In this document: in pieces, positions 576 through 38,593 of the stretch
Numbering within the stretch: the stretch's first letter is position 1
Layout: the number at the start of each line of letters is the position of its first letter
Origin: Alphaproteobacteria bacterium
Lineage (GTDB): Bacteria > Pseudomonadota > Alphaproteobacteria > SMXQ01
DNA length: 64,000 nt
Assembly: GCA_030831315.1 (NCBI GenBank)
Contig: JAURLI010000052.1
Location: forward strand, 25,905-89,904
Direction: 5' to 3'
Made by a program: the position numbers and the translations under genes
Notes under the pieces: model-generated
Databases searched by the model: none
Seen by the model: the letters and a program-made list of their open reading frames with translations, nothing else
Told to the model about the DNA's origin: nothing

Positions 576-1586
576 TTACTTGATCATGCCGCCCACCTTG
601 GCGATGACCGCCTTGGGGGTGGCATAAATCTCGCGGACGGCGGTTTCGGCTTCCTCGCCGCTCATTGGGCCGATGATTTCGCGGTTGCCCTTGTCGGCCT
701 CGGCCATGAACGCCTTGTCCTTGACCGTGTCGACGAAAGCCTTGCGCAGGGTGGCGAGCGCCTGTGCGGGAACCTTCGCCGACTGGACGAAGGGCCGGCC
801 GATTTCGCTCGGCGCCAGGATGACGTTCAGGATCTGGCGGTGTTCGGCCCCTTTGGCGAAGTCCATGATGTAGGGCATCTGGGGCATGTCGGGCGCGGAG
901 GCCTTGGAGAAGCGGACCAGCATGTTGATCTTCTTGTCCTTGATCCACGACTGGGGCGTCGAGCCCCAGGCGCCGCAGTCGGCCTCAAGCTCGCCGCGCT
1001 CGATGGCGATGCGCATTTCCGCAGAGCCGGGATAGCCGAGCACGTGCTTGATCTTGGCCCCGAACATGTTGCGGAGCAGCGCGCCGTTCACATAGGCCGA
1101 AGACCCCGACGTCGTGCCGCCCATCACGATCTGCGGACGCTTGAGAAAATCGTCCATCGACTTGATGCCGGTCTTGCCCCAGGCATAGCAGAGCCGGATA
1201 TCGGACGAGGCCGAGCCGATGAAGCGTAGCTTGGTGAAGTCGATCGGTGCCTTCTTCGGGTCCGTGAGCGACTGGGTGATCAGCCCAGGATTGAAGATGG
1301 TCATGGCGGTACCGTCCTTCGGCCCGCCCGCGTCGAGATAACGGATTGCCGTCATCGAGCCCGCCCCCGGCATGTTCTGCACGATGACCGTGGGCTTGCC
1401 GTCGATCTGCTTGCCCATGTGGCGCCCGATCAGGCGGCCATAGGCATCGTAGCCGCCGCCGGGGGAAAACCCGACGATGACCCTGATGGTCTTGCCCTTG
1501 AAGTCCTGGGCGACGGCAGCACCCTGCGCCGCACAGATGAAGACGGACGCTGCCGCTGCAGCGCCGAGGATACGGAGGGACATCAT
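576..1586 (-). CDS. Tripartite tricarboxylate transporter substrate-binding protein (Bug/TctC family), canonical length 336 aa
   Basis: Signal peptide, FKGKTIRVIVGFSPGGGYD and IKHVLGYPGSAE motifs typical of TctC/Bug family; no C-terminal extension. Confidence 0.85.
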   Translation of the reverse strand: MMSLRILGAAAAASVFICAAQGAAVAQDFKGKTIRVIVGFSPGGGYDAYGRLIGRHMGKQIDGKPTVIVQNMPGAGSMTAIRYLDAGGPKDGTAMTIFNPGLITQSLTDPKKAPIDFTKLRFIGSASSDIRLCYAWGKTGIKSMDDFLKRPQIVMGGTTSGSSAYVNGALLRNMFGAKIKHVLGYPGSAEMRIAIERGELEADCGAWGSTPQSWIKDKKINMLVRFSKASAPDMPQMPYIMDFAKGAEHRQILNVILAPSEIGRPFVQSAKVPAQALATLRKAFVDTVKDKAFMAEADKGNREIIGPMSGEEAETAVREIYATPKAVIAKVGGMIK

Positions 1587-7898: not shown

Positions 7899-9206
7899 TT
7901 ACTTGCAGTCCACGTTGGCGGCTTCCTTGGCGCCTTCATTCGGCAGGGTGACGTTGCACTCCATGCCTTCCTTGAAGGCGCTGCGGTTGGCCGCCTTGCC
8001 GGCGACGGTGATCTTGGTGCGCGAGCCGGAAATGCCGGTCTGCACGTCCTTGCCGCCGACGCTGACGGCGATCTTGCGGCCGCCCTCGATGACCTTCGAG
8101 ATCTTGCCCGAGAACTTGGGCTGCTCGACCTTGGCGGTCTGGGTGGGGCCCTTGAACTTCAGCATGTCGTCGAGCTTGGCCAGCGCCGACTTGGGCTGGG
8201 CCGCCATTTCGGCGACGATCTTCTGGATCTCTTCGCCGGTGATCAGGTCGACGTCACGCTTGAGCTTCTTGGCTTCCGCCTGGAACTGAGCGTCCTTGGC
8301 GGTGGCATCGAAAGCAACGCGCATCGCCTTGACGCGGTCGGCCGGAACCTTCGCCGCCATCGCAAACGGGCGGCCCATGACGCGCACGCCCATCAGGATC
8401 TGGAAATAGGCGGAGGCCTCTTCCTGGGTGACACCCGCACCAAGGTGCTTGCCGGTTTTGATCACGTCGAAAACGGTCGGCACGCCCATCTTGGTCAGCT
8501 CGGGCACCGGCTTGACGGTGAGCTGGATGATCGGCTTCAGGGTGCCTGCGCGTATCATCGGGCCGCCCTGGTCGCTGAGCGACGCCCAGGACTGGCAGAT
8601 GCCATCGACTTCGCCGCGTTCGATCGCGAGGTGGATAGGCGGCGTGGACGGATAGCCCTTGATCAGGCGGAACTTGCCGCCGAGCGCGTTGTTGATCAGC
8701 GCGGGGTTGATTTCGGTGTCGTTCGGACCCGTGCCGCCCATGATGAAGGTGCGGGTGAAGACTTCCTCGAACGACTTAATGCTCGTGCGCGTCGCGATGG
8801 CGCAGGCGCCCGGCTCGTCGGCAAGGCTGCCCAGCCAGTTGAGTTCGACGGACTTGAACTTGGGACCCTTCTGGCCCATCAGTTCGGCCATCGCGGCGTT
8901 GCGCTGCATGCCGGCGATCACGGTGCCGTCCTTGGGCGCGACGTTGAAGACGTAGTTCGCCATGACGATGGAGCCGGCGCCTTCCATGTTCTTCACAAGG
9001 AAGCCCGGGTTGCCGGGGATATGGCGGCCCATGTGGCGCGACAGCATACGCGCGTAAACGTCATAGCCGCCGCCCGGACCGGAACCGACCAGCAGCTGGA
9101 TCCGCTTGCCCTTGTAGAAATCGGCAATGGCGTCGGCTGAGGCGGGGCCTGAGGCAAACATGCCGCACAGGGCCGCCGCAGCGGTCATGATGTGGGGAAA
9201 ACGCAT
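7899..9206 (-). CDS. Bug/TctC-family substrate-binding protein with ~110 aa C-terminal Lys/Gly-rich two-Cys extension (paralog 1)
   Basis: Signal peptide plus full TctC core (DFYKGKRIQLLVGSGPGGGYD ... IKGYPSTPP); extension KISKVIEGGRKIAVSVGGKDV...SGSRTKITVAGK...KEGMECNVTL...VDCK. Confidence 0.85.
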   Translation of the reverse strand: MRFPHIMTAAAALCGMFASGPASADAIADFYKGKRIQLLVGSGPGGGYDVYARMLSRHMGRHIPGNPGFLVKNMEGAGSIVMANYVFNVAPKDGTVIAGMQRNAAMAELMGQKGPKFKSVELNWLGSLADEPGACAIATRTSIKSFEEVFTRTFIMGGTGPNDTEINPALINNALGGKFRLIKGYPSTPPIHLAIERGEVDGICQSWASLSDQGGPMIRAGTLKPIIQLTVKPVPELTKMGVPTVFDVIKTGKHLGAGVTQEEASAYFQILMGVRVMGRPFAMAAKVPADRVKAMRVAFDATAKDAQFQAEAKKLKRDVDLITGEEIQKIVAEMAAQPKSALAKLDDMLKFKGPTQTAKVEQPKFSGKISKVIEGGRKIAVSVGGKDVQTGISGSRTKITVAGKAANRSAFKEGMECNVTLPNEGAKEAANVDCK

Positions 9207-9309
9207 GGAAGACTCCCTAGTAAATTGAGTGAAAGAGCCGGGTTGGCGGTTCTAACCGGCCCCGTCGGGGGACGCAAGCTGGCTGTGGCTATATGGCTAC
9301 AAAGTGGCG

Positions 9310-9343
9310 CAAAAAAGGCACCCCCAGAAAACCGGGGGTGCCG
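9310..9343 (-). terminator. Rho-independent terminator after paralog 2
   Basis: GGCACCCCC-loop-GGGGGTGCC with A6 on plus (U-run on minus) 40 nt after stop at 9382. Confidence 0.6.
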
Positions 9344-9381
9344 AAGAGCCGCGAAAGCCGCGGATACTGGGGTTCAGGTGA

Positions 9382-10692
9382 TCAGCCCTTGCAGTCGACT
9401 ACCGTGGCTTCCTTGGAACCAGGCGGCAGGCTGATCGCGCAGGTCATGCCTTCCTTGAACGCCGAACGCTTGGCGTTCTTGCCGCCCACCTTGATCTTCG
9501 TGCGCGAGCCGGAAATCTTGGCCGACACCTTCTTACCACCAGCATCGACGGTGATCTTGCGGCCGCCCTTTTCGATCTTGGTGATCTTGCCGGTATGCTT
9601 CGGGATCTCGACCTTCGCGGTCTTGACCGGGCCGTGCCACTGGCTCACGTACTCGAGCTTCTTCAGGACGTCCTTCGGAGCCGAAGCCATCTTTTCGACG
9701 ATGTCCTGAATTTCATCGCCGGTGACGAGGCTGAGATCGCGGCCCTGCTTATTGGCCTCTTCGACGAACTTCTTGTCCTCGGTCGTCTTGTTGAAGGCGT
9801 TACGCAAAACCTTGACCTTGTCGGCCGGCACCTTGGGGCCGAGCGCGAAGGGACGGCCCATCGTCTTGGTCGCCATTAGCAGGCGGAACAGGGTGCGAAC
9901 CTGATCCTTCGTGTAGCCGGGCTGTAGACGGTTCTCATCGACGAGATCCATCAGCAGCGGCACGCCCTTGGCCTTGAGCTCAGGCAGCGGCTTCAGCGAC
10001 AGCTGGGCCAGCAGCACCATTTCGCCCTTCGCATAAAGGTTTGACTGGTGTGCAAAGGACGCCCAGGACTGGCTGATGCCGTCGACCTCGCCGCGCTCCA
10101 TCGCGAGATGGGTCGGCGGCGTGGACGGATACCCCTTGATCAGGCGAATCTTCGCGGCCAGCGTGTTGGCGATCAGGGCGGGGTAGAATTCCGTGTCGTT
10201 CGGGCCGGTGGAGCCGAACAGCACTTCCTTCCCGTACATGTCCTCGAACTTCTTGATGCCGGCGCGCTTAGACACCGCGATGATACCGACTTCGTTGTTG
10301 AAGCTGCCAAGCCAGTTGAGTTTGGTCGCCTCAAATTTCGGGCCCTTCTGGCCCATGATCTGGACGATCGGCGCATTGCGCTGCAGCGAGGCGATCACCG
10401 TGCCGTCCTGGGGGGCGACGTTATAGACGTAGTTGGCGGCGATGATCGAGCCGGCGCCGTCCATGTTCTTGACGATGAAATTGGGGTTACTGGGGATATG
10501 GCGCCCCATGTGGCGGCCCATCATGCGGGCATAGGTGTCGTATCCGCCGCCGGGGCCAGAGCCGACATAAACTACGATGTCCTTGCCTTTGTAGAAGTCA
10601 GAAATCGCATCAGCATGGGCAGACAAAGCAAAAACAGATGTCATCGCAAGAACTGCGACAGAATAGTTGCGGAATTTCCGAACAATTTTCAT
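9382..10692 (-). CDS. Bug/TctC-family substrate-binding protein with C-terminal two-Cys extension (paralog 2, tandem to paralog 1)
   Basis: Same core and extension architecture as 7899..9206 (GKITKIEKGGRKITVDAGGKKV...SGSRTKIKVGGK...KEGMTCAISL...VDCKG). Confidence 0.85.
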   Translation of the reverse strand: MKIVRKFRNYSVAVLAMTSVFALSAHADAISDFYKGKDIVVYVGSGPGGGYDTYARMMGRHMGRHIPSNPNFIVKNMDGAGSIIAANYVYNVAPQDGTVIASLQRNAPIVQIMGQKGPKFEATKLNWLGSFNNEVGIIAVSKRAGIKKFEDMYGKEVLFGSTGPNDTEFYPALIANTLAAKIRLIKGYPSTPPTHLAMERGEVDGISQSWASFAHQSNLYAKGEMVLLAQLSLKPLPELKAKGVPLLMDLVDENRLQPGYTKDQVRTLFRLLMATKTMGRPFALGPKVPADKVKVLRNAFNKTTEDKKFVEEANKQGRDLSLVTGDEIQDIVEKMASAPKDVLKKLEYVSQWHGPVKTAKVEIPKHTGKITKIEKGGRKITVDAGGKKVSAKISGSRTKIKVGGKNAKRSAFKEGMTCAISLPPGSKEATVVDCKG

Positions 10693-10936
10693 TGTGAATT
10701 ACTCCCAGATGTTTTGCGTTCGGGGCGTTTCTGATTGTTGTTATTTCTTAAAAGGATAGCGATATTCTGACCATGATCAACCCCGCGCGATAAATTTGTC
10801 ATAATCTATTCAAATTATTGAGGACAAAGCGAGATTTCCGCTGTTTTGATTGATCCCATTGCGTCTTGATGCTCCGGGCTGCTCCGGTTAACAAGGAATC
10901 GAACGGTCTTTAATTGCCTGTGGCGGGGCCAGGGAA
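10693..10936. promoter_or_regulatory. AT-rich divergent intergenic region (promoters for 9382..10692 and 10937..12328)
   Basis: ~244 bp markedly AT-rich relative to ~65% GC surroundings; contains TTGACA-like and TATAAT-like hexamers. Confidence 0.5.
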
Positions 10937-12328
10937 ATGGTGAAACAGGTCAAATCGGGGTCCAAAAGTACAGCCGGGCTTCCGGAGGAAATCGGCAGAA
11001 AGAGGGCCGAAGCGGTGTCTCGCACGGTGATCGGGCGCAAGCGGCGCAAGACCGTGCAGCGGGAGGATGTTTTCCGCATATCCGCGCTCGGCCTCGACTG
11101 GGATATCGGCGTCATGACCTATAGCCCGGCCGGTGCGGTTACCCGCGGCGCCGATGGCCGCAAGGCCGGCTTCTTCCTGCTGCACGGTGGCAACGGCGAT
11201 TTCAAGTCGGTCGAGCCGCTGGCGCTGCTGCTCAGCCAGCGCTTCGGCTACAAGGTCGTATCGATGACCTTCCCCGGCCGGCTTTATCTGCCCGACCCGT
11301 CGCGGGACTGGCCCGGCGACACGATAGAATCCGACGGTGCCGCACGGATGCCGATCTGGAAGAAGGGCGAGGTCATCACCCGCGACCAGTACGATCTGGT
11401 TCACGACGACAAGCTGCGTGCGCGCTATGGCATCCGTACCTTTGCACGCGCCCGTCCGAGAACCTTGTTCCATGAGCGCATGGCGGCCTGGCCTGTCGCC
11501 TTCGAGGACGGAATGCTCGAAGCGTGCCGAAGGCATTTTCCCGCCGACGAGTTCTCGGTCTATCTGCACGGCCATTCGACGGGCGGCGCCTTTACGGCGA
11601 TCCTGAGCCAGCGACTCGAGAACTGCGCGGGCCAGACCGAAGTGGAAACCGCGCCCATCGGCGTCATTAACCGGGCCAAGCACGCATGGTCAGGTTCGAT
11701 GGGCAAGATCAAGGGTTACGCCAAGGCCGGGCCGAAGGAACCCGACGACGTCCTTCACGATCCATTCACTGATCTTTATCTGCGCACCTGGCGTGATCGG
11801 GCACGCTATTCGGGGCCCGAGGCGCTGGGACGGGAGGGAGCGGCGGCGCTGATGCGTCTGCCCTGGCTGATGGAAGAAATCCTAGACGGCTGGCAGGAAG
11901 AACGTCTGCGCCCGCAGTTCAAGGCGGAATTCCCCGTGACCCATAACGTCGAGGGGACGCTGGCAAAGGCCGCCCGCGTGGCGGCGCGCAGGCTCGGTCT
12001 GGGCCGGAAGGAAACGCGGGCACTGGTGGAACGCTACCTTGATTACGGGCGCTATCGCACAGGGAAGAACGCGCGTCCGGTGCCGCCCGTCTATTTCGTC
12101 AATTCGCGGCTGAGCCGCGACAACTCGGAAGAAGCCTTTAGCGCCGTCGTCATTCCGATGCTGAAAGCCTTGCGTCCCGCGCCGCAGGTGCATCTGACCA
12201 TGGTCGATGCGGGCAGTCATATCTACATGGAGCCAGATGGCCCCGCGCTGCCCATGGGCATAGCGCCCGTAGCGGCGTATCTTTTCGATGAAGCGGTGCG
12301 CGGCGGTTTTTTCGCCCAAGCCGGGTAG
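10937..12328 (+). CDS. Hypothetical alpha/beta-hydrolase-fold protein (463 aa)
   Basis: LHGGNGDF oxyanion-like and LHGHSTGG nucleophile-elbow motifs; unusual N-terminal basic region; start codon uncertain. Confidence 0.55.
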   Translation: MVKQVKSGSKSTAGLPEEIGRKRAEAVSRTVIGRKRRKTVQREDVFRISALGLDWDIGVMTYSPAGAVTRGADGRKAGFFLLHGGNGDFKSVEPLALLLSQRFGYKVVSMTFPGRLYLPDPSRDWPGDTIESDGAARMPIWKKGEVITRDQYDLVHDDKLRARYGIRTFARARPRTLFHERMAAWPVAFEDGMLEACRRHFPADEFSVYLHGHSTGGAFTAILSQRLENCAGQTEVETAPIGVINRAKHAWSGSMGKIKGYAKAGPKEPDDVLHDPFTDLYLRTWRDRARYSGPEALGREGAAALMRLPWLMEEILDGWQEERLRPQFKAEFPVTHNVEGTLAKAARVAARRLGLGRKETRALVERYLDYGRYRTGKNARPVPPVYFVNSRLSRDNSEEAFSAVVIPMLKALRPAPQVHLTMVDAGSHIYMEPDGPALPMGIAPVAAYLFDEAVRGGFFAQAG

Positions 12329-12344
12329 AACTCAAGAGGCCTGA

Positions 12345-12900
12345 ATGGTCCTCCTTCAGCTTCTCGTCATCATCGTCCTGACACGCGCCTGCGGCGAGGG
12401 CGCGGTGCGCCTCGGCCATCCGTCGACGATCGGGGAAATCCTTGCCGGTGTTCTGCTTGCCGGCGCGGCGGCGGGCTTCGGCAGTAAAATTCCGTTCCTC
12501 GTCGCGCTTCTCGAAGGCGAGGTATTCCACCACGCGGCGACGGTGGGAATTTTCTTCCTCATGCTGCTCGCGGGCATCGAACTGAAGCCGCGTGAAATTT
12601 TTTCGCGTTCGCTGTCTTCCCCGTTCGTTGCCCTTGGCGGCGTGCTCGTGCCCCTCGGTGGTGCAGGGCAAGGAATATCCGTGGAAGGCCGGCGACTTCA
12701 TGTTCTCGGCGCCGGGCTGGGCCATTCATGCCCACACCGCGGACAAGGGGCCGGTCTACGAGCTGACCATCCAGGACATGCCCTTCTCCACTAATACCGA
12801 CTGCCTGCTCTGGCAGGAAGACATGAAGGGTCCGATTTCGCTGCTTGGCTCACACGCGGGCTTCCAGACCAACCGCGACAAGCTTGCGAAGGCGAGTTGA
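12345..12900 (+). pseudogene. Mosaic remnant: CPA2 (Kef/NhaP-type) antiporter N-terminus joined out of frame to the C-terminal cupin of a gentisate-dioxygenase-like protein
   Basis: Frame 12345 MVLLQLLVIIVLTRACGEGAVRLGHPSTIGEILAGVLL is a typical Kef N-terminus, degenerating after ~95 aa; frame 12592 KEYPWKAGDFMFSAPGWAIHAHTADKGPVYELTIQDMPF is a cupin C-terminal block; switch near 12650-12665. Confidence 0.6.
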
Positions 12901-12979
12901 CGGCCTGAGAGATCAGACCGCCGGGGGAACGGGAGCGTCTATAGGTCTCTGCCGGTTTCCGTTCCCCCACATACCCCTG

Positions 12980-13015
12980 CCGGGTCCGTCCCCTCGGACC
13001 CGGCTTCTTTTTTTC
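12980..13015 (+). terminator. Rho-independent terminator (shared region with convergent peroxiredoxin gene)
   Basis: CCGGGTCCG-loop-CGGACCCGG followed by CTTCTTTTTTT. Confidence 0.6.
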
Positions 13016-13526
13016 AGACTTCCCCGCGGGCCGGTTCGCCGGTTTCGGTCATGCGCGCGATGGTGTCGATGATGTCGTCGGGGTAGGGGCGCATGCGTTG
13101 CATGGAATTGATGACGACGAACTGCACGGTGCCGTCGGCGCGGATGAGAAAACAAGCCGGCTCGCTGAACAGCGGCGCCTCGTCGGGGCGGATCGGCGTT
13201 GACAGAAACAGGTCCCAGTCCCGTGCGGTTGCGGTGTCCATGCCGTAGGCAACCGCGACGCGCTTCAACTCCCACTCCTTCTTCGTACGTTCCGCCGCCT
13301 CACGGTCATCCATGCTGATGGCGACGATCCCCGTGCCGAGCGCGTCGAGCTTGTCCATCTTCTGGTCAAGATCGCGCAGTTGGCCCCGGCAGCGCTGGCA
13401 GAAATGCCCACGGTAGAACATCAGGAGAGTGAACTTTTCCGCCTTGTGCGCATGCAGCTCAAAGCGACCGCCGCCCGCGAGCGGGAGATCGAGCGCAGGG
13501 GCCTTCTGGCGGGGCATTACGGTCAT
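13014..13526 (-). CDS. Peroxiredoxin (AhpC/TSA / redoxin family)
   Basis: Thioredoxin-fold motifs FTLLMFYRGHFCQRC and ACFLIRADGTVQF; start taken at internal ATG (MTVMPRQ). Confidence 0.7.
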   Translation of the reverse strand: MTVMPRQKAPALDLPLAGGGRFELHAHKAEKFTLLMFYRGHFCQRCRGQLRDLDQKMDKLDALGTGIVAISMDDREAAERTKKEWELKRVAVAYGMDTATARDWDLFLSTPIRPDEAPLFSEPACFLIRADGTVQFVVINSMQRMRPYPDDIIDTIARMTETGEPARGEV

Positions 13527-13689
13527 GGTCGTGGTCCCTTGGATGTTCGTGGGCGGCACAAAAGGCGCAGATGCGACGCCTCTGGAATGGTTGGCACCAA
13601 GCCCCCATTTTGTAACAATGACCGAATATAACGTGGAGCGGCACCGCCGACCACAGGAGCGCCGCCCGATACGTCAGGAGGCAGCAGAC

Positions 13690-13899
13690 ATGAGCTTGCA
13701 AACCAACAACAGCAGCCAGGTTGCAATCCGCACCCGCATGAAGGATGCCCTCGCCAGGGTTCTGGAGAAGGCCAAACCACGCGACCGTTTCGTCCATCGT
13801 CCGCGCCTTGATGTGGCCAAGCCCGCGCCGAGCGGTGCGGCGGCAGATACGCGCGAGCTTGTGTCCTTCGCCATCAACACCCTTGGACCCGCGTCCTAA
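13690..13899 (+). CDS. Small hypothetical protein (69 aa)
   Basis: AGGAGG 9 nt upstream of ATG; same frame stays open after the TAA stop to 14057. Confidence 0.3.
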   Translation: MSLQTNNSSQVAIRTRMKDALARVLEKAKPRDRFVHRPRLDVAKPAPSGAAADTRELVSFAINTLGPAS

Positions 13900-14041
13900 C
13901 GTGCGGCGGTGCTTGGTACGCCGGTTACCGTCAGCGTCGAGGACGAGGCGACAGCCGAAGTGCTGCGCGAGGCGATCGAACTGTCGTGCAGGGAACGTCC
14001 GGCCAATCGCCTTATCGAGATAAAGGTGAAAGGGGCGGGCG

Positions 14042-14842
14042 TCAGAACACCCGGTTGATGCCTTTCCACAGCAGGATGAGCGCGCCCACCATCAGCACGA
14101 TCTGGAAGGCGTTGTAGAACCGCTTCGCGTCGGCGCGGTGAAAGAACCGGATGCCGGCCCACGCACCCGCGAGCGAGAGCGGTAGCAGAAACAGGGATTC
14201 CACAACGAGCCGCCACGACACCAGGCCGATAGCGATGGATACCACCAGTCGCCAGAACAGGATGATCGCGCCGATCAGGATCGAGGTTCCGCGAAACAGC
14301 GTCGGCGTCGGGCAGGCGAGCTTCAGGTAAACCGACAGCAGGTACATGCCGCCGCCGCCCGCGACGCCTGCGATCAGACCGCTGACCGACGACAGGCCGA
14401 GCGCCACGTCGAAGCGGGTCAGGTCGACCCGCTGCGCCAGCCGGTCGAGCATTTTGTAGCGGTCCATCATCGCGATGCCCAGCATCGCAACGCCAAGGAA
14501 GATGGTGAGCCAGCCCGGCTCAAGCTTTTCGAAGATGAACGTGCCGACGGTGATGGCGACCATGCTGGACAGCAGCAGCGGTTTCACCAGTTTCCAGTCG
14601 CCGTGCTTCAGGCCGAAGGGCGCGATCTGCGCCTGCGCCCAGGTGCCGGTCGCCAGCGCCAGCATGACCGCGTGATGGGGTTCGAGGATGATCGAGGAAA
14701 AAACGATGGTCGGTGCCACCGCGCCGAAGCCGAGCGCCCCGCGCACGCTGGCCAGAATGCCGTAGATCGCCATCAGGGCGACGATCTGGAAAGCGCTCAG
14801 GGCGTGGAACGGAGCGAGGTCCGGCGGGAAGAGTTCGGCCAT
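14042..14842 (-). CDS. TauE/SafE family sulfite exporter (DUF81 membrane protein)
   Basis: Multi-pass membrane protein with two repeated halves; start trimmed to MAELFPPDLAPF (ATG 14842) from 366-aa ORF. Confidence 0.7.
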   Translation of the reverse strand: MAELFPPDLAPFHALSAFQIVALMAIYGILASVRGALGFGAVAPTIVFSSIILEPHHAVMLALATGTWAQAQIAPFGLKHGDWKLVKPLLLSSMVAITVGTFIFEKLEPGWLTIFLGVAMLGIAMMDRYKMLDRLAQRVDLTRFDVALGLSSVSGLIAGVAGGGGMYLLSVYLKLACPTPTLFRGTSILIGAIILFWRLVVSIAIGLVSWRLVVESLFLLPLSLAGAWAGIRFFHRADAKRFYNAFQIVLMVGALILLWKGINRVF

Positions 14843-15062
14843 CAGGGTTCGATCGGGAAAGGGGACCTGAAACCAGGCGGGAGTCAGGTGATAAACCTTC
14901 CCCCGGTCCCGGTCAGTAATAATTCTCCTTCGCGGGGGAAAACCCCGAAACCGCAGGGTTTCCGGGCCCGGTTGCGGGGGCCGGGGTTTTGCACTAGAAC
15001 GGGCACGGAAATGGTATGTTGCCGGTTGGCACGTATGTAAAAGGGCAGGAAAGGCTTCGAAA

Positions 15063-15941
15063 ATGGCGTCTGCAAATCCCTCTCTCCATCTCGCGAACGA
15101 TTCCATCCCGGCCCCCGCGGGCGTCCGGGTCAAGGCGATCAAGCCGGCGGTCGGCTCCTACATTTCCGGCTATCGCTTCGACGGCAACACGGTGTCCGAT
15201 GACTTCCGTGCTTCCATGCGCGAATTGCTGCATACGCGCGGCCTCGTCGTCTTCGAGCCGGGCACCGTCACGGCCGAAAATTTCACCAGGTTCGCGGGCT
15301 TCCTCGGCGAGTTCTTCAACTACGCGGGTCCGCACACGCCGCGCGCGCCTGAAAACCCCGACGCGACCATGATCAGCGCCTCCAAGGACGCCCATCTTCG
15401 CAATCACGTCTGGCATGCCGACGGCGGTTTCCGCGCCGATGCGCCGGCGTTTACCGCTCTGTTCGGCAAGCAGATCCCCGATTCGGGCGGCGACACGATG
15501 TTTGCGAACGCGGCCCATGTCTACGACATGCTCGATCCGCTGTTTGCGCAGTATCTCGAAACCCTCAAGGTGGTTCAGTCGCCCGACGCCACCGGCCACA
15601 TCACCGACCGCTATCTCGATCCCGAGGAAGCGGCCCAGGCGCGTCTGCGCATGCCGCCGTTCGAAATGCCGCTGATCCGCGTGCACCCGGTGTCGGGCCG
15701 CAAGTGGGTGGCGATCAACGAATCCTACGTCTGCTACATCAAGGGCGTCGGCCGCATCCACAGCCAGAACATCCTCGGCATCCTGTTCGACATGATCAAG
15801 TCGCCCGAAGCGACCTGCCGCGTCGAATGGGAGCAGGGTGCGCTTGCCGTATGGGACAACCGGGTCGTGCAGCATCGCGCGATCAAGGACTACACCAGCA
15901 ACGCCACGCGCATCCTCTACCGCTGCACAATGACGGCGTGA
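15063..15941 (+). CDS. TauD/TfdA-family Fe(II)/2-oxoglutarate dioxygenase
   Basis: WHADGG (HxD) facial-triad block and C-terminal VWDNRVVQHRA block. Confidence 0.8.
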   Translation: MASANPSLHLANDSIPAPAGVRVKAIKPAVGSYISGYRFDGNTVSDDFRASMRELLHTRGLVVFEPGTVTAENFTRFAGFLGEFFNYAGPHTPRAPENPDATMISASKDAHLRNHVWHADGGFRADAPAFTALFGKQIPDSGGDTMFANAAHVYDMLDPLFAQYLETLKVVQSPDATGHITDRYLDPEEAAQARLRMPPFEMPLIRVHPVSGRKWVAINESYVCYIKGVGRIHSQNILGILFDMIKSPEATCRVEWEQGALAVWDNRVVQHRAIKDYTSNATRILYRCTMTA

Positions 15942-24707: not shown

Positions 24708-26318
24708 ATGAGCCATAAAATTTCCGCATCCCGCCTCAAAGATCGTATCGCTGCCGTCGCCAGCGGGCGCGAACTCGCCATTCTCGATGTGCGCGAGGAA
24801 GGTGTTTACGCCGAAGGCCACCTTCTGTTCGCCTCGACCTGCCCACTCAGCCGGCTCGAACTTCTGGCGCCGTCGCTCGTGCCCAGGCGCGATGTTGCGG
24901 TCGTCGTCATGGACGGCGGCGCGGGGGAGGACCTTGCCGAACGGGCCGCTACGCGCCTTACGGCGCTCGGCTGGAGCGACGTCGCCGTGCTCGAAAACGG
25001 CCTTGCCGGGTGGCGCGAGGCGGGGTTCGAGGTTTTTGGCGGCATGAACGTGCCGTCAAAGGCATTCGGCGAACTGGTCGAGCTGCGTCTCGGCACGCCC
25101 CATGTCACCGCCCACCAGCTGCGCATCATGATGGACCGCGGCGACGATCTCGTGGTTCTCGATTCGCGGCCGATGGACGAGTTTCGCATGATGAATATTC
25201 CGGGCGCCCTCGACTGCCCGGTGTCGGAGCTGGTCTATCGCGTCCGCGATCTGGCGCCCGACGCCGACCGCACGGTGGTGGTCAACTGCGCCGGGCGCAC
25301 GCGCTCCATCCTCGGTGCCCAGTCGCTGATCAACGCGGGCGTGCCCAATCGCGTGGTGGCGCTGGAAGACGGAACCATGGGCTGGCACCTCGCGGGCTAC
25401 GAGCTTGAGCGCAACCAGTCGCGCATGGCGCCCGCGCCTTCGCCCGAAGCCTTGCAGATCGCTGCCGGCCGCGCGGCCCGCATCGCTGAACGCGCCGGCG
25501 TGCGCGAGGTCGAATATGCCGAACTGAACCAGTGGCGCGCCGATACGGGCCGTACGACCTATGTTTTCGACGTGCGCCTGCCCGAGGAATACGAGGCCGG
25601 GCATCTTGCCGGAAGCCGTCACGCCATCGGCGTGCAGCTGACGCAGAAGACCGATGCCTTCATGGCCACCCTCGGCGCGCGCGTCGTGGTGGTGGATGAT
25701 GACGGCGTGCGTGCGCGCCTTGCCGCCGCTTGGCTGCGCCAGATGGGTTGGGATGCTTCCGTGCTGGCGGGCGGCCTTTCAGAGGGCCCGACGGCATCCG
25801 GCCCTGACCGGGGTGATGTCGCCGGTCTTGACGGCGCGACCCGCGAAAGCGTGGCGCCGCGCATGCTGGCGGTCAGCCAGATGCGCGGGCGCGTGCACCT
25901 GCTCGATCTTTCGCGCAGCCTGACCTTTGCCCGCGGCCATATTCCGGGCGCGCGTTTCGCCATCCGTTCGCGTTTTGCCGACAGCCTTTCGCGCCTGGCC
26001 CCGGGCGATATCGTACTGACCTGCGAGGACGGGACGCTGTCGCGCTTGGCCGCGCCGGAAGTCGCGGCGCTCGGGCGCAACGTCAAGGTTCTGGCGGGCG
26101 GCAATGCCGCGTGGCGGCGCGAAAAGCTGCCGTGGGAAACGGGGCGCGGCGATCCGCTGGACGAGCTTGAGGACGAGGCCTTCTGGCGGCCATATGAGCG
26201 CGCCAGCGGCCAGGAAGAGGCAATGCACCGCTACCTGTCTTGGGAAAAGGGCCTGATCGGGCAGATCGAGCGCGACGGCGATGCGCGCTTCGAGGTGATC
26301 GACTTTTCCGCGGTCTAG
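24708..26318 (+). CDS. Multi-domain rhodanese-like sulfurtransferase (four tandem rhodanese repeats)
   Basis: Four ~120 aa repeats each with a rhodanese-type loop; Cys-containing loop VVVNCAGRTRSIL in repeat 2; start taken at MSHKISASRL. Confidence 0.65.
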   Translation: MSHKISASRLKDRIAAVASGRELAILDVREEGVYAEGHLLFASTCPLSRLELLAPSLVPRRDVAVVVMDGGAGEDLAERAATRLTALGWSDVAVLENGLAGWREAGFEVFGGMNVPSKAFGELVELRLGTPHVTAHQLRIMMDRGDDLVVLDSRPMDEFRMMNIPGALDCPVSELVYRVRDLAPDADRTVVVNCAGRTRSILGAQSLINAGVPNRVVALEDGTMGWHLAGYELERNQSRMAPAPSPEALQIAAGRAARIAERAGVREVEYAELNQWRADTGRTTYVFDVRLPEEYEAGHLAGSRHAIGVQLTQKTDAFMATLGARVVVVDDDGVRARLAAAWLRQMGWDASVLAGGLSEGPTASGPDRGDVAGLDGATRESVAPRMLAVSQMRGRVHLLDLSRSLTFARGHIPGARFAIRSRFADSLSRLAPGDIVLTCEDGTLSRLAAPEVAALGRNVKVLAGGNAAWRREKLPWETGRGDPLDELEDEAFWRPYERASGQEEAMHRYLSWEKGLIGQIERDGDARFEVIDFSAV

Positions 26319-32144: not shown

Positions 32145-33428
32145 ATGACGACAGTTCTCAGAACCGCTTTTCTCGGTGCGCTGTTCGCGTGCCTGTCGGT
32201 TTTTGCGGTCCTTTCGCCCGCGAAGGCCGATGCGGTCGCCGATTTCTACAAGGGCAAGAATGCGCAGATGATCATCGGATCGTCGGCGGGCGGCGGCTAC
32301 AACCAGTATGGCCGCCTGGTCGCCCGTCATATCGATCGGCACATCCCGGGCCATCCGTCGATCGCGGCCAAGAACCAGCCGGGCGGCTCCGGGCGCAAGG
32401 CGCTCAATTACGTTGCCAACGTTGCCAAGCCCGATGGCCTGACCATGGGCATCGTCAGCCGCAACACGCATTTCGACCGGCTTCTCTACGGGGACAAGTC
32501 GGTTGACGTCGATTCGACCAAGCTGGTCTGGCTCGGCAGCGCCAACAGCGAGGTGTCGCTCTGTGTGTCCTGGCACGCAACGCCCATCAAGACGATCCAG
32601 GATGCCCGCAACGGCATGACCATCGGTTCGTCGGGGCCGGTCGCCACCGATACGCTGATGGCGCGCATCCTCAACCAGATTGCTGATACCAAGATCAAGG
32701 TCATCCTCGGCTATCCGGGTTCGACCGAAGTGCATCTGGCGCTCGAGCGCGGCGAAGTGACGGGCCGTTGCGGCTTTGGCTGGGACAGCATCGTTTCGCG
32801 CTACTACGACTGGATCAAGGACAAGAAGATCAACCTGCTGGTGCAGCTTGCCACCAACAAGCATCCGGACCTTCCCAACGTTCCGTCGTTCAAGGACTTC
32901 GCCAAGACCGATACCGAACGCCAGATGCTGCAGATCTTCACGCTGCCCAATGAAATGGGACGTCCCTTCTTCGCTCGTTCGGGCATCCCGGCCGACCGCG
33001 TGAAGGCGCTGCGCGCTGCATTCGTGGCGGCGATGAAGGATCCGGCGCTGCTGGCGGAAGCAAAGAAGCAGCGTCTCGCCATCGAGGCACTCGACGGTGC
33101 CACGGTCGAAAAGATGGTGAAGGAGGTCTACGCCAGCCCCGCCGAAGCGGTGAAACTGGCGGCATCCATCGTGAACACGACGGAGAAGCTCGAGAAGCGC
33201 AAGGAGAACTTCTACACCGTCAGCGTCTCGCTGGGTGCGGTGAAGAAGAAAGGCCGCGAGCTGAGCTTCATGGAAAAGGGCAAGGAGGCGAAAGCCGTCC
33301 TCACCCGCGCGACCAAGGTTACGGTCGGCGGCGAGAAGGCCAAGACCTCGAAGCTCAAGGCCGGAATGACCTGCGACGTCACCTACGAAGGCAACCTGTC
33401 GGTCGCCAAGTCGGTCGCCTGCAAGTAA
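32145..33428 (+). CDS. Bug/TctC-family substrate-binding protein with C-terminal two-Cys extension (paralog 3, most divergent)
   Basis: TctC core to ~aa 330, then KKGRELSFMEKGKEAKAVLTRATKVTVGGEKAKTSKLKAGMTCDVTYEGNLSVAKSVACK. Confidence 0.8.
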   Translation: MTTVLRTAFLGALFACLSVFAVLSPAKADAVADFYKGKNAQMIIGSSAGGGYNQYGRLVARHIDRHIPGHPSIAAKNQPGGSGRKALNYVANVAKPDGLTMGIVSRNTHFDRLLYGDKSVDVDSTKLVWLGSANSEVSLCVSWHATPIKTIQDARNGMTIGSSGPVATDTLMARILNQIADTKIKVILGYPGSTEVHLALERGEVTGRCGFGWDSIVSRYYDWIKDKKINLLVQLATNKHPDLPNVPSFKDFAKTDTERQMLQIFTLPNEMGRPFFARSGIPADRVKALRAAFVAAMKDPALLAEAKKQRLAIEALDGATVEKMVKEVYASPAEAVKLAASIVNTTEKLEKRKENFYTVSVSLGAVKKKGRELSFMEKGKEAKAVLTRATKVTVGGEKAKTSKLKAGMTCDVTYEGNLSVAKSVACK

Positions 33429-35642: not shown

Positions 35643-35853
35643 TTCCCGGCGTTTCCGCGCCTTCCGAATCGTTTTGACAGTGCCGAGAGCGGCGCGGCAT
35701 CATCGCGCCAATCCCGGCCGCTTGTGGCCGGGCGATTTGCAAGCTCTGGCTTGGCGCAAATGTGCATGCCACCGGCATCGTGCCGGGGTATGGGCCCCCG
35801 AAGAAGGCCGCGTTCCAGCAACACCTCGCCGCCTTCTTTTGGGAGACACGAAA

Positions 35854-37119
35854 ATGACATTCTCATTGCGCGCGCGCGCCTTACTCGGCGCGGCAGTTTC
35901 GTTCGGCCTTGCCTCTACAGCATCGGCGGAGACGCCCGCCGAATTCTTCAAGGGCAAGACCGTCAACATGTACATTTCCTCGGGCGCGGGCGGCACCAAC
36001 GATGCCTATGCGCGCCTGATCGCCGAACACATCACCCGGCACCTGCCGGGTCAGCCCAACGTGCTGCCGCGCAACATGCCGGGTGCGGGCGGGCTGAAGG
36101 CGACGAAGTACCTTTATACCGTCGCGCCCAAGGACGGGCTCGCGATGGGTGTTGTGCAACGCGCCGTCGCGGTGCAGCCGCTGCTCGGCATCAAGGGGGC
36201 GGATTTCAATCCGCTCGAATTCAACTGGGTCGGCTCCACCGCCCAGGAAGTTTCCGTCGCGGTCGCCTGGAAGACTTCGAAGGTTCAATCGATCAAGGAG
36301 GCCGTGCAGAACGAACTGGTGGTGGGTTCGTCCGGCGTCGGCAACGACACCGGCGCGTTCCCGCGCGTCGTGAATTACTTCCTCGGCACCAAGGTTCGCC
36401 CCATCCACGGCTATGTCAGCGGCACCGACATCACGCTGGCCATGGAGCGCGGCGAAGTGCATGGCCGCTTCGGCTGGTCGTGGGGCTCGCTCAAGAGCCG
36501 CGAAGCGCGCTGGCTCAAGGACGGCTCGATTAAGGTCATCCTGCAGATGGGTCTCAAGAAGGCGCCAGACCTCGATGCGCCGCTGGTGCTCGATCTCGCC
36601 AAGACGCCCGAGGACCGCAAGGCGATGGAAGTGATCTTCGCCGCCACCACCATCGGCTGGCCGTCGCTGTTGCCGCCGAAGGTGGCCGCCGAACGCGTCG
36701 CCGCGTTCCGCGCCGCTTATGCCGCGACCGTGAAGGACCCTGCCTTCGTGAAGGGGGCGGAGAAGCGCGGGCTTGAGCTCGATCCGTTGAGCGGCGAGGA
36801 AATCCAGTCGATCATCGCCAACATCTATGCGTCTTCGCCCGACATCGTCGAGCGCGCCCGCAAGGCCTACGCGCCGGGCGGCAAGGTCGAAATGGCGAAG
36901 GTCCTCAACGCCAAGGGCAAGATCGCCAAGATCAACAAGAAGGGCACGCGCATGACCATCGATGACGGCAAGGCCAAGGTCGAGGCGCGCATCGCCGGTG
37001 ATACCAAGATCACCATTGCCGGCGAAGCGGCCAAGCGCGAGGCGCTCAAGCAGGACTTGACCTGCGCGGTGACGCTGGTGGCTTCCGGCGCGGTTGCGCA
37101 CGCGGTTACCTGCGATTGA
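35854..37119 (+). CDS. Bug/TctC-family substrate-binding protein with C-terminal two-Cys extension (paralog 4)
   Basis: ATG 35854 with GGGAGA RBS; signal peptide; TctC core; extension GKIAKINKKGTRMTIDDGKAKVEARIAGDTKITIAGEAAKREALKQDLTCAVTLVASGAVAHAVTCD. Confidence 0.85.
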   Translation: MTFSLRARALLGAAVSFGLASTASAETPAEFFKGKTVNMYISSGAGGTNDAYARLIAEHITRHLPGQPNVLPRNMPGAGGLKATKYLYTVAPKDGLAMGVVQRAVAVQPLLGIKGADFNPLEFNWVGSTAQEVSVAVAWKTSKVQSIKEAVQNELVVGSSGVGNDTGAFPRVVNYFLGTKVRPIHGYVSGTDITLAMERGEVHGRFGWSWGSLKSREARWLKDGSIKVILQMGLKKAPDLDAPLVLDLAKTPEDRKAMEVIFAATTIGWPSLLPPKVAAERVAAFRAAYAATVKDPAFVKGAEKRGLELDPLSGEEIQSIIANIYASSPDIVERARKAYAPGGKVEMAKVLNAKGKIAKINKKGTRMTIDDGKAKVEARIAGDTKITIAGEAAKREALKQDLTCAVTLVASGAVAHAVTCD

Positions 37120-37330: not shown

Positions 37331-38593
37331 ATGAACCGCTTTCAAACCATCAGTGTATTCGCGTTGGCAGCCCTTGGCGCGGGCCTGAGCCAGCCGGCAG
37401 GTGCTGCACCCGAAGACGTGCTCAAGGGCAAGAACGTCAACATGTTCATTTCGTCTGGCGCGGGGGGAACCAACGATACCTTCGCCCGCCTGATTGCCGA
37501 TCACATGGCGCGTCATTTGCCGGGCCAGCCCAATATCCTGCCGAAGAACCTGCCCGGCGCCGGCGGGCTCAAGGCGGCCAAGTTCCTCTATACCCAGGCG
37601 TCGCGCGAAGGCCTGTCCATGGGCGTGGTGCAGCGTTCCATCGCGGCGCAGCCGCTTCTCGGCATCAAGGGCGCGGATTTCAACCCGCTCGAGTTCAACT
37701 GGATCGGTTCCACCGCATCCGAAGTTTCGGCGGGCGTGGTGTGGAACGCACCCGAAATCAAATCGATCCAGGATGCGCTGCAGAACGAAGTGCTGATTGG
37801 ATCGTCCGGCGTGGGCAACGACACCGGGGCGTTCCCGCGCGTCGTGAATTATTTCCTCGGCACCAAGCTGCGGCCGATCCACGGCTATATCTCGGGGACC
37901 GACATCATCCTTGCCATGGAGCGCGGCGAGGTGAAGGGCCGTTTCGGCTGGTCCTGGGGCTCGGTCAAGAGCCGTGAGCCCAAGCGTCTCAAGGATGGCA
38001 CCATCAAGGTGCTTTTGCAGATGGGCATCAAGAAGGCGCCCGATCTCGACGCGCCGCTGGTGCTCGATCTCGCCAAGAACGAACAGGACCGCAAGGCCAT
38101 GGAAGTGATCTTCGCACAGGTCACCATCGGCTGGCCGTCGCTGCTGCCGCCGAAGGTCCCGGCCGACATGGTCAAGGCCTACCGCGACGCCTACAAGGCG
38201 ACCATGAAGGATCCGAAGTTCGTGAAGGGGGCGAAGGATCGCAGGCTCGACCTCGATCCCCTTTCGGGCGAGGAAATCCAGTCGATCATCGCCAATATCT
38301 ACGCCTCGCCGCCGGAAGTGGTGACGCTTGCCCGCAAGGCCTATTCGCCCGGCGGTAATATCGAGATGGCGAAGATCCTCAAGGTCAAGGGTCCGATCGC
38401 CAAGATCAACAAGAAGGGGTCCAAGCTGACCATGACCGTCGACGGCAAGAAGGTCGATGCGCGGGTCGCCGGGCGCACGAAGATCACCATCGCCGGCAAG
38501 AAGGCGGAACGAAAGGCGCTGAAGGCCGGGATGACCTGCACGATGTCGCTGGTGGCATCGGGCGCGGTCGCCCAGAAGATGGCCTGCAACTGA
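37331..38593 (+). CDS. Bug/TctC-family substrate-binding protein with C-terminal two-Cys extension (paralog 5, tandem to paralog 4)
   Basis: Extension GPIAKINKKGSKLTMTVDGKKVDARVAGRTKITIAGKKAERKALKAGMTCTMSLVASGAVAQKMACN; core highly similar to paralog 4. Confidence 0.85.
   Translation: MNRFQTISVFALAALGAGLSQPAGAAPEDVLKGKNVNMFISSGAGGTNDTFARLIADHMARHLPGQPNILPKNLPGAGGLKAAKFLYTQASREGLSMGVVQRSIAAQPLLGIKGADFNPLEFNWIGSTASEVSAGVVWNAPEIKSIQDALQNEVLIGSSGVGNDTGAFPRVVNYFLGTKLRPIHGYISGTDIILAMERGEVKGRFGWSWGSVKSREPKRLKDGTIKVLLQMGIKKAPDLDAPLVLDLAKNEQDRKAMEVIFAQVTIGWPSLLPPKVPADMVKAYRDAYKATMKDPKFVKGAKDRRLDLDPLSGEEIQSIIANIYASPPEVVTLARKAYSPGGNIEMAKILKVKGPIAKINKKGSKLTMTVDGKKVDARVAGRTKITIAGKKAERKALKAGMTCTMSLVASGAVAQKMACN

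Follow-up and report, generated by a model that had tools for sequence, protein, structure and literature searches.

Directly downstream of an uncharacterised hydrolase gene in the genome of an uncultured alphaproteobacterium, the start of a CPA2 antiporter gene is followed, in another reading frame, by the end of a dioxygenase gene. This arrangement raises the question of whether the locus is the remains of two genes, a small gene with a use of its own or a product of faulty assembly. The stretch analysed here, referred to as the window, comprises 64,000 nucleotides (positions 25,905 to 89,904 of contig JAURLI010000052.1). The initial annotation described positions 12345-12900 as a mosaic pseudogene of an antiporter start and a bicupin end, and profile searches, tblastn and comparison with a relative, L018, agreed that this mosaic is real and was placed essentially correctly. 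We regard the segment, with high confidence, as the pseudogene scar of a single intrachromosomal deletion of about 1,989 bp. The features of the window at and around the scar are as follows.

10937..12328, plus strand: intact open reading frame of an uncharacterised alpha/beta hydrolase-like protein (463 aa, GHSTGG), the syntenic anchor
12334..12339, plus strand: Shine-Dalgarno-like AAGAGG, read from the sequence, 5 nt 5' of the CPA2 ATG
12345..12659, plus strand: CPA2 antiporter remnant, codons 1-105 of about 415, covering TM1-TM3 and the start of TM4
12345..12794, plus strand: chimeric open reading frame of 149 aa, consisting of the 105 CPA2 codons and an out-of-frame tail of 44 codons through the dioxygenase remnant
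12654..12658, plus strand: deletion junction with the microhomology CTCGG, a copy of which lies at both breakpoints in L018
12655..12900, plus strand: bicupin remnant, codons 300-380 and stop, in the +1 frame relative to CPA2
12979..13014, plus strand: intrinsic terminator, a hairpin at 12979-13004 followed by a T-run, tail TTCTTTTTTT
13690-14058, plus strand: small conserved hypothetical gene with an in-frame TAA at 13897-13899

The 149-aa open reading frame scored above the gathering threshold (26.2 bits) of the Pfam family PF00999, Na_H_Exchanger (E 2.5e-8, 33.6 bits), its residues 15-113 corresponding to profile positions 9-95 of 375, and also matched TIGR00932, the model of the CPA2 subfamily (E 1e-5). 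When intact proteins of relatives were used as tblastn queries, CPA2 residues 13-106 mapped to window positions 12381-12662. It had been proposed that the match degenerates after about 95 aa and covers the first two helices; instead, the similarity extends up to the junction at 12654-12659, with FVALGGVLVPLG the same in the remnant and in L018, and hydropathy and protein alignment place about 3.5 transmembrane helices in the fragment. At the DNA level, the remnant is collinear with L018 up to L018 position 9720 (84% identity). The intact L018 orthologue covers positions 11-373 of PF00999 and the window remnant only 9-95, so that the full CPA2 core (profile positions of about 1-375, 12-13 transmembrane helices with crossed discontinuous helices) is not present and about 75% of it is missing. 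A fragment running from TM1 to about TM3.5 without the core would be unable to transport ions. The AAGAGG upstream of its ATG may still be in use as a Shine-Dalgarno sequence.

The +1 frame is open from 12592 to the TGA at 12898-12900, and this open reading frame matched the C-terminal end of the NCBIfam 5-aminosalicylate 1,2-dioxygenase model NF049978 (E 2.2e-5, profile positions 281-324 of 351). Database homologues of the fragment, with identities of up to 95%, bear the JGI name gentisate 1,2-dioxygenase. In tblastn with the intact proteins of relatives, dioxygenase residues 268-348 mapped to window positions 12655-12897; these queries are numbered from an internal Met, and the residues equal 300-380 of the 380-aa form in L018, with which 79 of 81 amino acids are identical. 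The out-of-frame fusion, and the assignment of the second piece to the last 80 or so amino acids of a bicupin dioxygenase ending at a stop, were thus borne out, with 81 codons and the stop lying between 12655 and 12900. The remnant has kept cupin motif 2 (GWAIHAH) and has lost the HRH motif: in a DRPHRH stretch of the L018 protein, HRH aligns with the HRH iron ligands of PDB 3bu7 and 4fag, and this stretch falls inside the deletion, about ten residues N-terminal to the junction. The HxH of motif 1 and the histidine of motif 2 therefore do not occur together in one barrel of the remnant, which, with two of three histidine ligands and most of the barrel lost, is predicted to be unable to bind iron. 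As the initial annotation had held, neither piece is likely to yield a functional product, judging by the missing transporter core and iron ligands. Within a plasmid collection, distant DNA matches to the bicupin piece (70-72%) occurred in cupin/gentisate dioxygenase genes of Paraburkholderia and Ralstonia; these gave no information on synteny.

Using the hydrolase as bait, one genome per GTDB species was scanned, which yielded 110 related loci. These were examined by tblastn with six proteins (CPA2 and dioxygenase from a relative; hydrolase, peroxiredoxin, TauE and binding protein from the window). The closest available genome was L018 (MAG contig JAYQQF010000004.1), whose peroxiredoxin is 98% identical to that of the window at the protein level. 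The more distant L017 showed the same gene order, with CPA2 and dioxygenase intact and adjacent. The two loci are laid out as follows.

L018, 8001-9392: hydrolase, 90% amino acid identity to the window hydrolase
L018, 9407-10654: intact CPA2 gene of 415 aa, directly 3' of the hydrolase gene
L018, between CPA2 and dioxygenase genes: spacer of 154 bp
L018, 10809-11951: intact dioxygenase-like bicupin gene of 380 aa
L018, 3' of the bicupin gene: peroxiredoxin gene, then TauE gene, both on the minus strand
L017, 2967-4208: CPA2 gene, directly 3' of the same hydrolase gene

The window remnant therefore has an intact CPA2 orthologue at the same chromosomal position in both genomes. As L018 and the more distant L017 both carry the intact version, the order hydrolase-CPA2-dioxygenase-peroxiredoxin is ancestral. 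The intact L018 antiporter consists of the membrane domain only and has no KTN/RCK domain; it is therefore not KefB or KefC proper, and its scores of 28.8 and 22.7 bits lie far from the equivalog cut-offs of 804 and 752 bits. From the original assignment to Kef/NhaP antiporters, membership in CPA2 stands, Kef is too specific, and nothing points to NhaP. The intact L018 bicupin matched TIGR02272 (E 2e-17) and NF049978 (E 3e-21), in both cases below the equivalog level (63.1 against 442.1 bits and 76.2 against 650 bits, respectively), and also matched the solved gentisate/salicylate dioxygenases 3bu7 (E 1.9e-15), 2phd and 2d40. An alignment pairs its C-terminal cupin with the catalytic one of solved gentisate dioxygenases, and the positions of the HRH and H ligands correspond. 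It appears to be a gentisate-dioxygenase-like enzyme whose substrate is not assignable from profile scores.

Blastn between the window and L018 produced two collinear blocks, window 10000-12658 with L018 7065-9720 (84.3% identity) and window 12650-15500 with L018 11701-14548 (90.5% identity), with 9 nt of the window common to both and 1,989 bp of L018 between them unmatched. CTCGG occurs in L018 at 9716 (CPA2 codons 104-105) and at 11705 (dioxygenase codons 299-300), 1,989 bp apart; the microhomology can be extended to GCC[C/A]CTCGG with 8 of 9 matches, and in the window the single copy at 12654-12658 is common to both remnants. Removed were CPA2 codons 106-415, the 154-bp spacer and dioxygenase codons 1-299. 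The length of 1,989 bp is divisible by three, but since the two genes lie in different frames, their remnants are joined out of frame. The comparison of syntenic loci proposed in the initial annotation thus located the intact genes 3' of the same hydrolase in L018 and L017, narrowed the suggested deletion junction from 12650-12665 to 12654-12659 and confirmed that most of both genes had been taken. The further content thought to have probably been lost between them did not exist in L018, as the intact locus has no other gene between CPA2 and dioxygenase.

No long direct or inverted repeats, IS ends, tRNAs or Rfam families were found at or near the junction, so a role of a mobile element or repeat was dismissed. 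A few bases of microhomology at both ends without repeats or mobile elements are the classical signature of illegitimate recombination or slippage, and one of these processes is the likely mechanism of the deletion in the window. The sequence of events may be pictured as follows. The ancestor would have carried a 415-codon CPA2 gene starting 16 nt 3' of the hydrolase gene and, on the same strand behind a spacer of 154 bp, a bicupin gene of 380 codons. Short-homology illegitimate recombination or replication slippage between the two copies of CTCGG would then have led to one intrachromosomal loss of about 1,989 bp, joining CPA2 codons 1-105 out of frame to dioxygenase codons 300-380 and leaving two presumably dead remnants. 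Transcription from the hydrolase gene probably still runs on through the scar as far as the old dioxygenase terminator, and residual translation may give rise to a short junk membrane peptide.

The junction was found base for base in three further sequences: L001 (ENA ERZ27257201, a 54-kb contig), L002 (Logan SRR15927528) and L096 (JGI Ga0222714_10028505). Their identity to the window is 98.7-99.8%, and each has private SNPs. The deletion is common to strains differing by about 1.3% and absent from L018 (about 84-91% identical). It is thus of recent, though not very recent, origin: it followed the separation of the L018 lineage and preceded the diversification of the clade of about 1% divergence.

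The hydrolase stop lies 16 nt before the ATG of the remnant, and the hydrolase gave weak matches only, with no Pfam or NCBIfam family above threshold. Its relatives at the 110 loci (41-90% identity) occur in MAGs of Alphaproteobacteria, Binatia, Thermodesulfobacteriota and Acidobacteria, often as tandem pairs and adjoining similar binding-protein genes; the hydrolase belongs to a widespread uncharacterised family. The remnant had been placed between an AT-rich island and the hydrolase gene; it lies 3' of the latter instead. The AT-rich stretch at 10693-10936 is the intergenic region between two divergent genes, for a binding protein (minus strand) and for the hydrolase (plus strand), an arrangement kept in relatives, and is a conserved divergent promoter region 5' of the hydrolase gene. 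Because of this conservation, it provides no evidence of an island. The terminator noted after the cupin remnant was confirmed as a strong terminator-like hairpin with a 10-bp stem, including nine G-C pairs, and a T-run; it is kept in L001, L002 and L018, sits between the remnant and the convergent peroxiredoxin gene, and is the original terminator of the dioxygenase gene. As a separate observation, the window contains at least five paralogues of a periplasmic-binding-protein-like family of about 435 aa with only weak matches to NMT1_3 or Phosphonate-bd, and a shorter relative.

576-1586, minus strand: shorter sixth binding-protein-like relative, 336-aa open reading frame
7899-9206, minus strand: binding-protein-like paralogue
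9382-10692, minus strand: binding-protein-like paralogue with a lysine-rich C-terminal extension
32145-33428, plus strand: binding-protein-like paralogue
35674-37119, plus strand: binding-protein-like paralogue
37331-38593, plus strand: binding-protein-like paralogue

Decay of the same module was also found in other relatives. A related population (L011-L014; JGI samples 3300063924, 3300063996, 3300063997 and 3300066509) carries a CPA2 gene with a +1 frameshift in a C7 run (L012, about 943-949) and a dioxygenase gene with two in-frame TAG codons (L013, about 1215-1217 and 1971-1973), which arose from TGG in the N-terminal extension and from TCG just before DRPHRH; here the peroxiredoxin gene is missing (L013 2279-2524 at the site). 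In the L003 population, the CPA2 gene breaks off at codon 97, and the genes that come next, for a binding protein and a cupin, are unrelated. A kinship of this 191-aa cupin with the cupin piece of the window was considered and rejected (BLASTP E 0.77), and L003 therefore represents an independent rearrangement. L019 has no CPA2 gene, and L016 has lost CPA2, dioxygenase and peroxiredoxin genes altogether. As the genes are frameshifted or nonsense-mutated, truncated or absent in relatives, the CPA2-dioxygenase module is evidently dispensable and has repeatedly been lost in these uncultured Alphaproteobacteria. Decay of this kind agrees with what is known of bacteria, in which a deletional bias erodes dispensable genes and pseudogenes are rapidly purged (Kuo & Ochman, PMC2817411, PMC2916853). 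The suggestion of a remodelled accessory region accordingly holds for the CPA2-dioxygenase-peroxiredoxin block, which is variably decayed or absent, and fails for the AT-rich stretch as an island.

Two further observations concern gene decay nearby and in L003. L003 has a LysR-type regulator split into open reading frames of 210 and 38 aa and a dienelactone hydrolase split into open reading frames of 232, 46 and 119 aa (regions 8848-9768 and 10112-11326); L003-type relatives may be generally rich in pseudogenes. The small conserved hypothetical gene at 13690-14058 encodes 122 aa in L001, L002 and L018, and a change of TAC to TAA at 13899 occurs in the window and L096 but in none of these three, which is a second, younger pseudogenisation about 1 kb 3' of the scar.

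The divergence between the window and L018 changes abruptly at the junction. To its left, about 10-24 mismatches per 100 nt were counted, to its right 1-8 per 100 nt for about 500 nt (window 12650-13150 with L018 11701-12200); expressed as percentages, divergence falls from about 17% to about 3-4% and then returns to 10-19%. Likewise, the dioxygenase remnant of the window differs from L018 by a dS of 0.12, as opposed to values of 0.51 for the peroxiredoxin, 0.61 for the CPA2 remnant and 0.77 for the hydrolase. This step is more than a plain intrachromosomal deletion would produce on its own. Part of it reflects the generally high conservation of the dioxygenase gene end, which exceeds that of the flanks in the comparison of L018 with L019 as well, and the rest suggests a recombination tract. 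Such a tract may have lost its left end to the deletion, or homology-facilitated illegitimate recombination may itself have produced the deletion; both readings are compatible with the data.

The latter would mean that the same dead scar was formed by another mechanism, during import from an L018-like donor, with the homologous end in the dioxygenase 3' end and peroxiredoxin gene, the illegitimate end at CTCGG in CPA2, and loss of the recipient DNA in between. The step in divergence, the low dS of the dioxygenase remnant and the short G+C-rich microhomology at the junction all agree with such an event. However, an ordinary homologous tract with its left end anywhere in the later-deleted 2 kb would give the same step, and the coincidence of step and junction is therefore little informative; gene-end conservation covers part of the effect, and the sample is small (243 nt and 8 differences). 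We consider deletion during import unlikely and prefer the single intrachromosomal deletion. If true, the recombination reading would provide a natural example of homology-facilitated illegitimate recombination in an uncultured alphaproteobacterium.

Recombination is also indicated among the closest strains. SNPs between the window and L001 are strongly clustered, with 42 in 15000-15299 for example, which suggests that patches were imported by recombination, possibly from strains whose genes are intact. The dense patch at 15000-15599 has 58 mismatches to the otherwise 98.7%-identical L001, spans the divergent TauE/TauD intergenic region and the start of the TauD-like gene, and is probably an imported tract. 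In the dioxygenase remnant, window and L001 differ by five synonymous and three non-synonymous changes (dN/dS of about 0.16, from only eight substitutions). This synonymous bias runs counter to a long-dead sequence, yet the counts are very small, and purifying selection on the remnant was not accepted, given eight substitutions and patchy SNPs. In the window sublineage, the dioxygenase sequence FCINT, otherwise invariant, has changed to FCTNT (L096) and further to FSTNT (window), which would fit a beginning of drift.

A second alternative is that the N-terminal 100 or so antiporter residues, with three transmembrane helices, have been kept as a small membrane protein of the hydrolase operon. 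The Shine-Dalgarno sequence and ATG are intact, and the 105 CPA2 codons are free of stops and frameshifts. In addition, two other lineages, L003 and L011/L012, have CPA2 N-terminal open reading frames of 116-122 aa 3' of the same hydrolase, and dN/dS of the CPA2 segment between lineages is 0.13-0.24. Low values are, however, equally expected if the inactivations are recent, and the protein search with both short queries returned only proteins of about query length, which biases any inference of recurrent truncation. Since L003 and L012 came from this length-biased search, the clustering of lesions at codons 97-117 is most likely ascertainment, and the lesions at codons 97, 106 and 117 were rejected as a sign of selection for an N-terminal piece. 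The unbiased hydrolase-anchored scan found CPA2 either intact (L018, L017) or wholly absent (L019, L016), and in none of these four a retained N-terminal piece. Furthermore, the tail differs between near-identical strains: the chimeric open reading frame is 149 aa long in the window and in L096, whereas in L001 and L002 a TGA created by C12693T shortens it to 116 aa. Finally, 3.5 helices of a fold of 12-13 would lack the ion-binding core. A retained small protein is thus very improbable. That either the three-helix peptide has a use of its own or the scar stems from homology-facilitated illegitimate recombination from an L018-like lineage was, as a joint proposition, rated only slightly higher and still as improbable.

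A CPA2-cupin fusion produced by programmed frameshifting was rejected, since the TGA of L001 and L002 lies in the CPA2 frame 11 codons past the junction, and since the product would combine 3.5 transmembrane helices with a third of a cupin barrel without metal ligands. That the junction comes from faulty assembly or sequencing, for example a chimeric contig or a collapsed region, is an a priori possibility for any metagenome-derived sequence and nothing more here, and the assembly error raised as a caveat in the initial annotation has next to no chance, as three independent assemblies (L001, L002 and L096) from different archives and samples share junction and flanks while having their own SNPs, and no repeats that could mislead an assembler were found at the site.

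The pseudogene scar of one deletion represents ordinary bacterial gene decay and raises no new biological question. It is a clean small example of this process, in which one can recover the ancestral arrangement of the genes, the deletion to its exact length of 1,989 bp, its 5-nt microhomology and its approximate age. It also carries a warning for annotation, as gene callers turn this scar into two small 'genes', a Na_H_Exchanger of 116 or 149 aa and a 'gentisate 1,2-dioxygenase' of 80-91 aa. In L001, the gene caller reported products of 116 and 80 aa, and database entries P0001, P0004 and others hold the scar halves or similar fragments as stand-alone KefB or gentisate 1,2-dioxygenase.

Compared with known systems, the window locus keeps about 25% of the membrane domain of CPA2 antiporters (PF00999, TIGR00932; KefB/KefC, NapA-type), and its intact L018 orthologue differs from KefB/KefC in being without KTN/RCK and in its score (28.8 against 804 bits). 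With the bicupin gentisate, salicylate and 5-aminosalicylate 1,2-dioxygenases, the remnant shares the C-terminus, without the HRH and the whole N-terminal cupin. The closest likeness is to deletion-derived bacterial pseudogenes: as in these, a dispensable pair was killed by one deletion between a few bases of microhomology, and the remnant persists in a recent clade, with independent lesions in sister lineages and full loss farther off. Nothing about the window scar is different in kind, except that here one deletion spans two adjacent genes and so produced a two-gene chimera.
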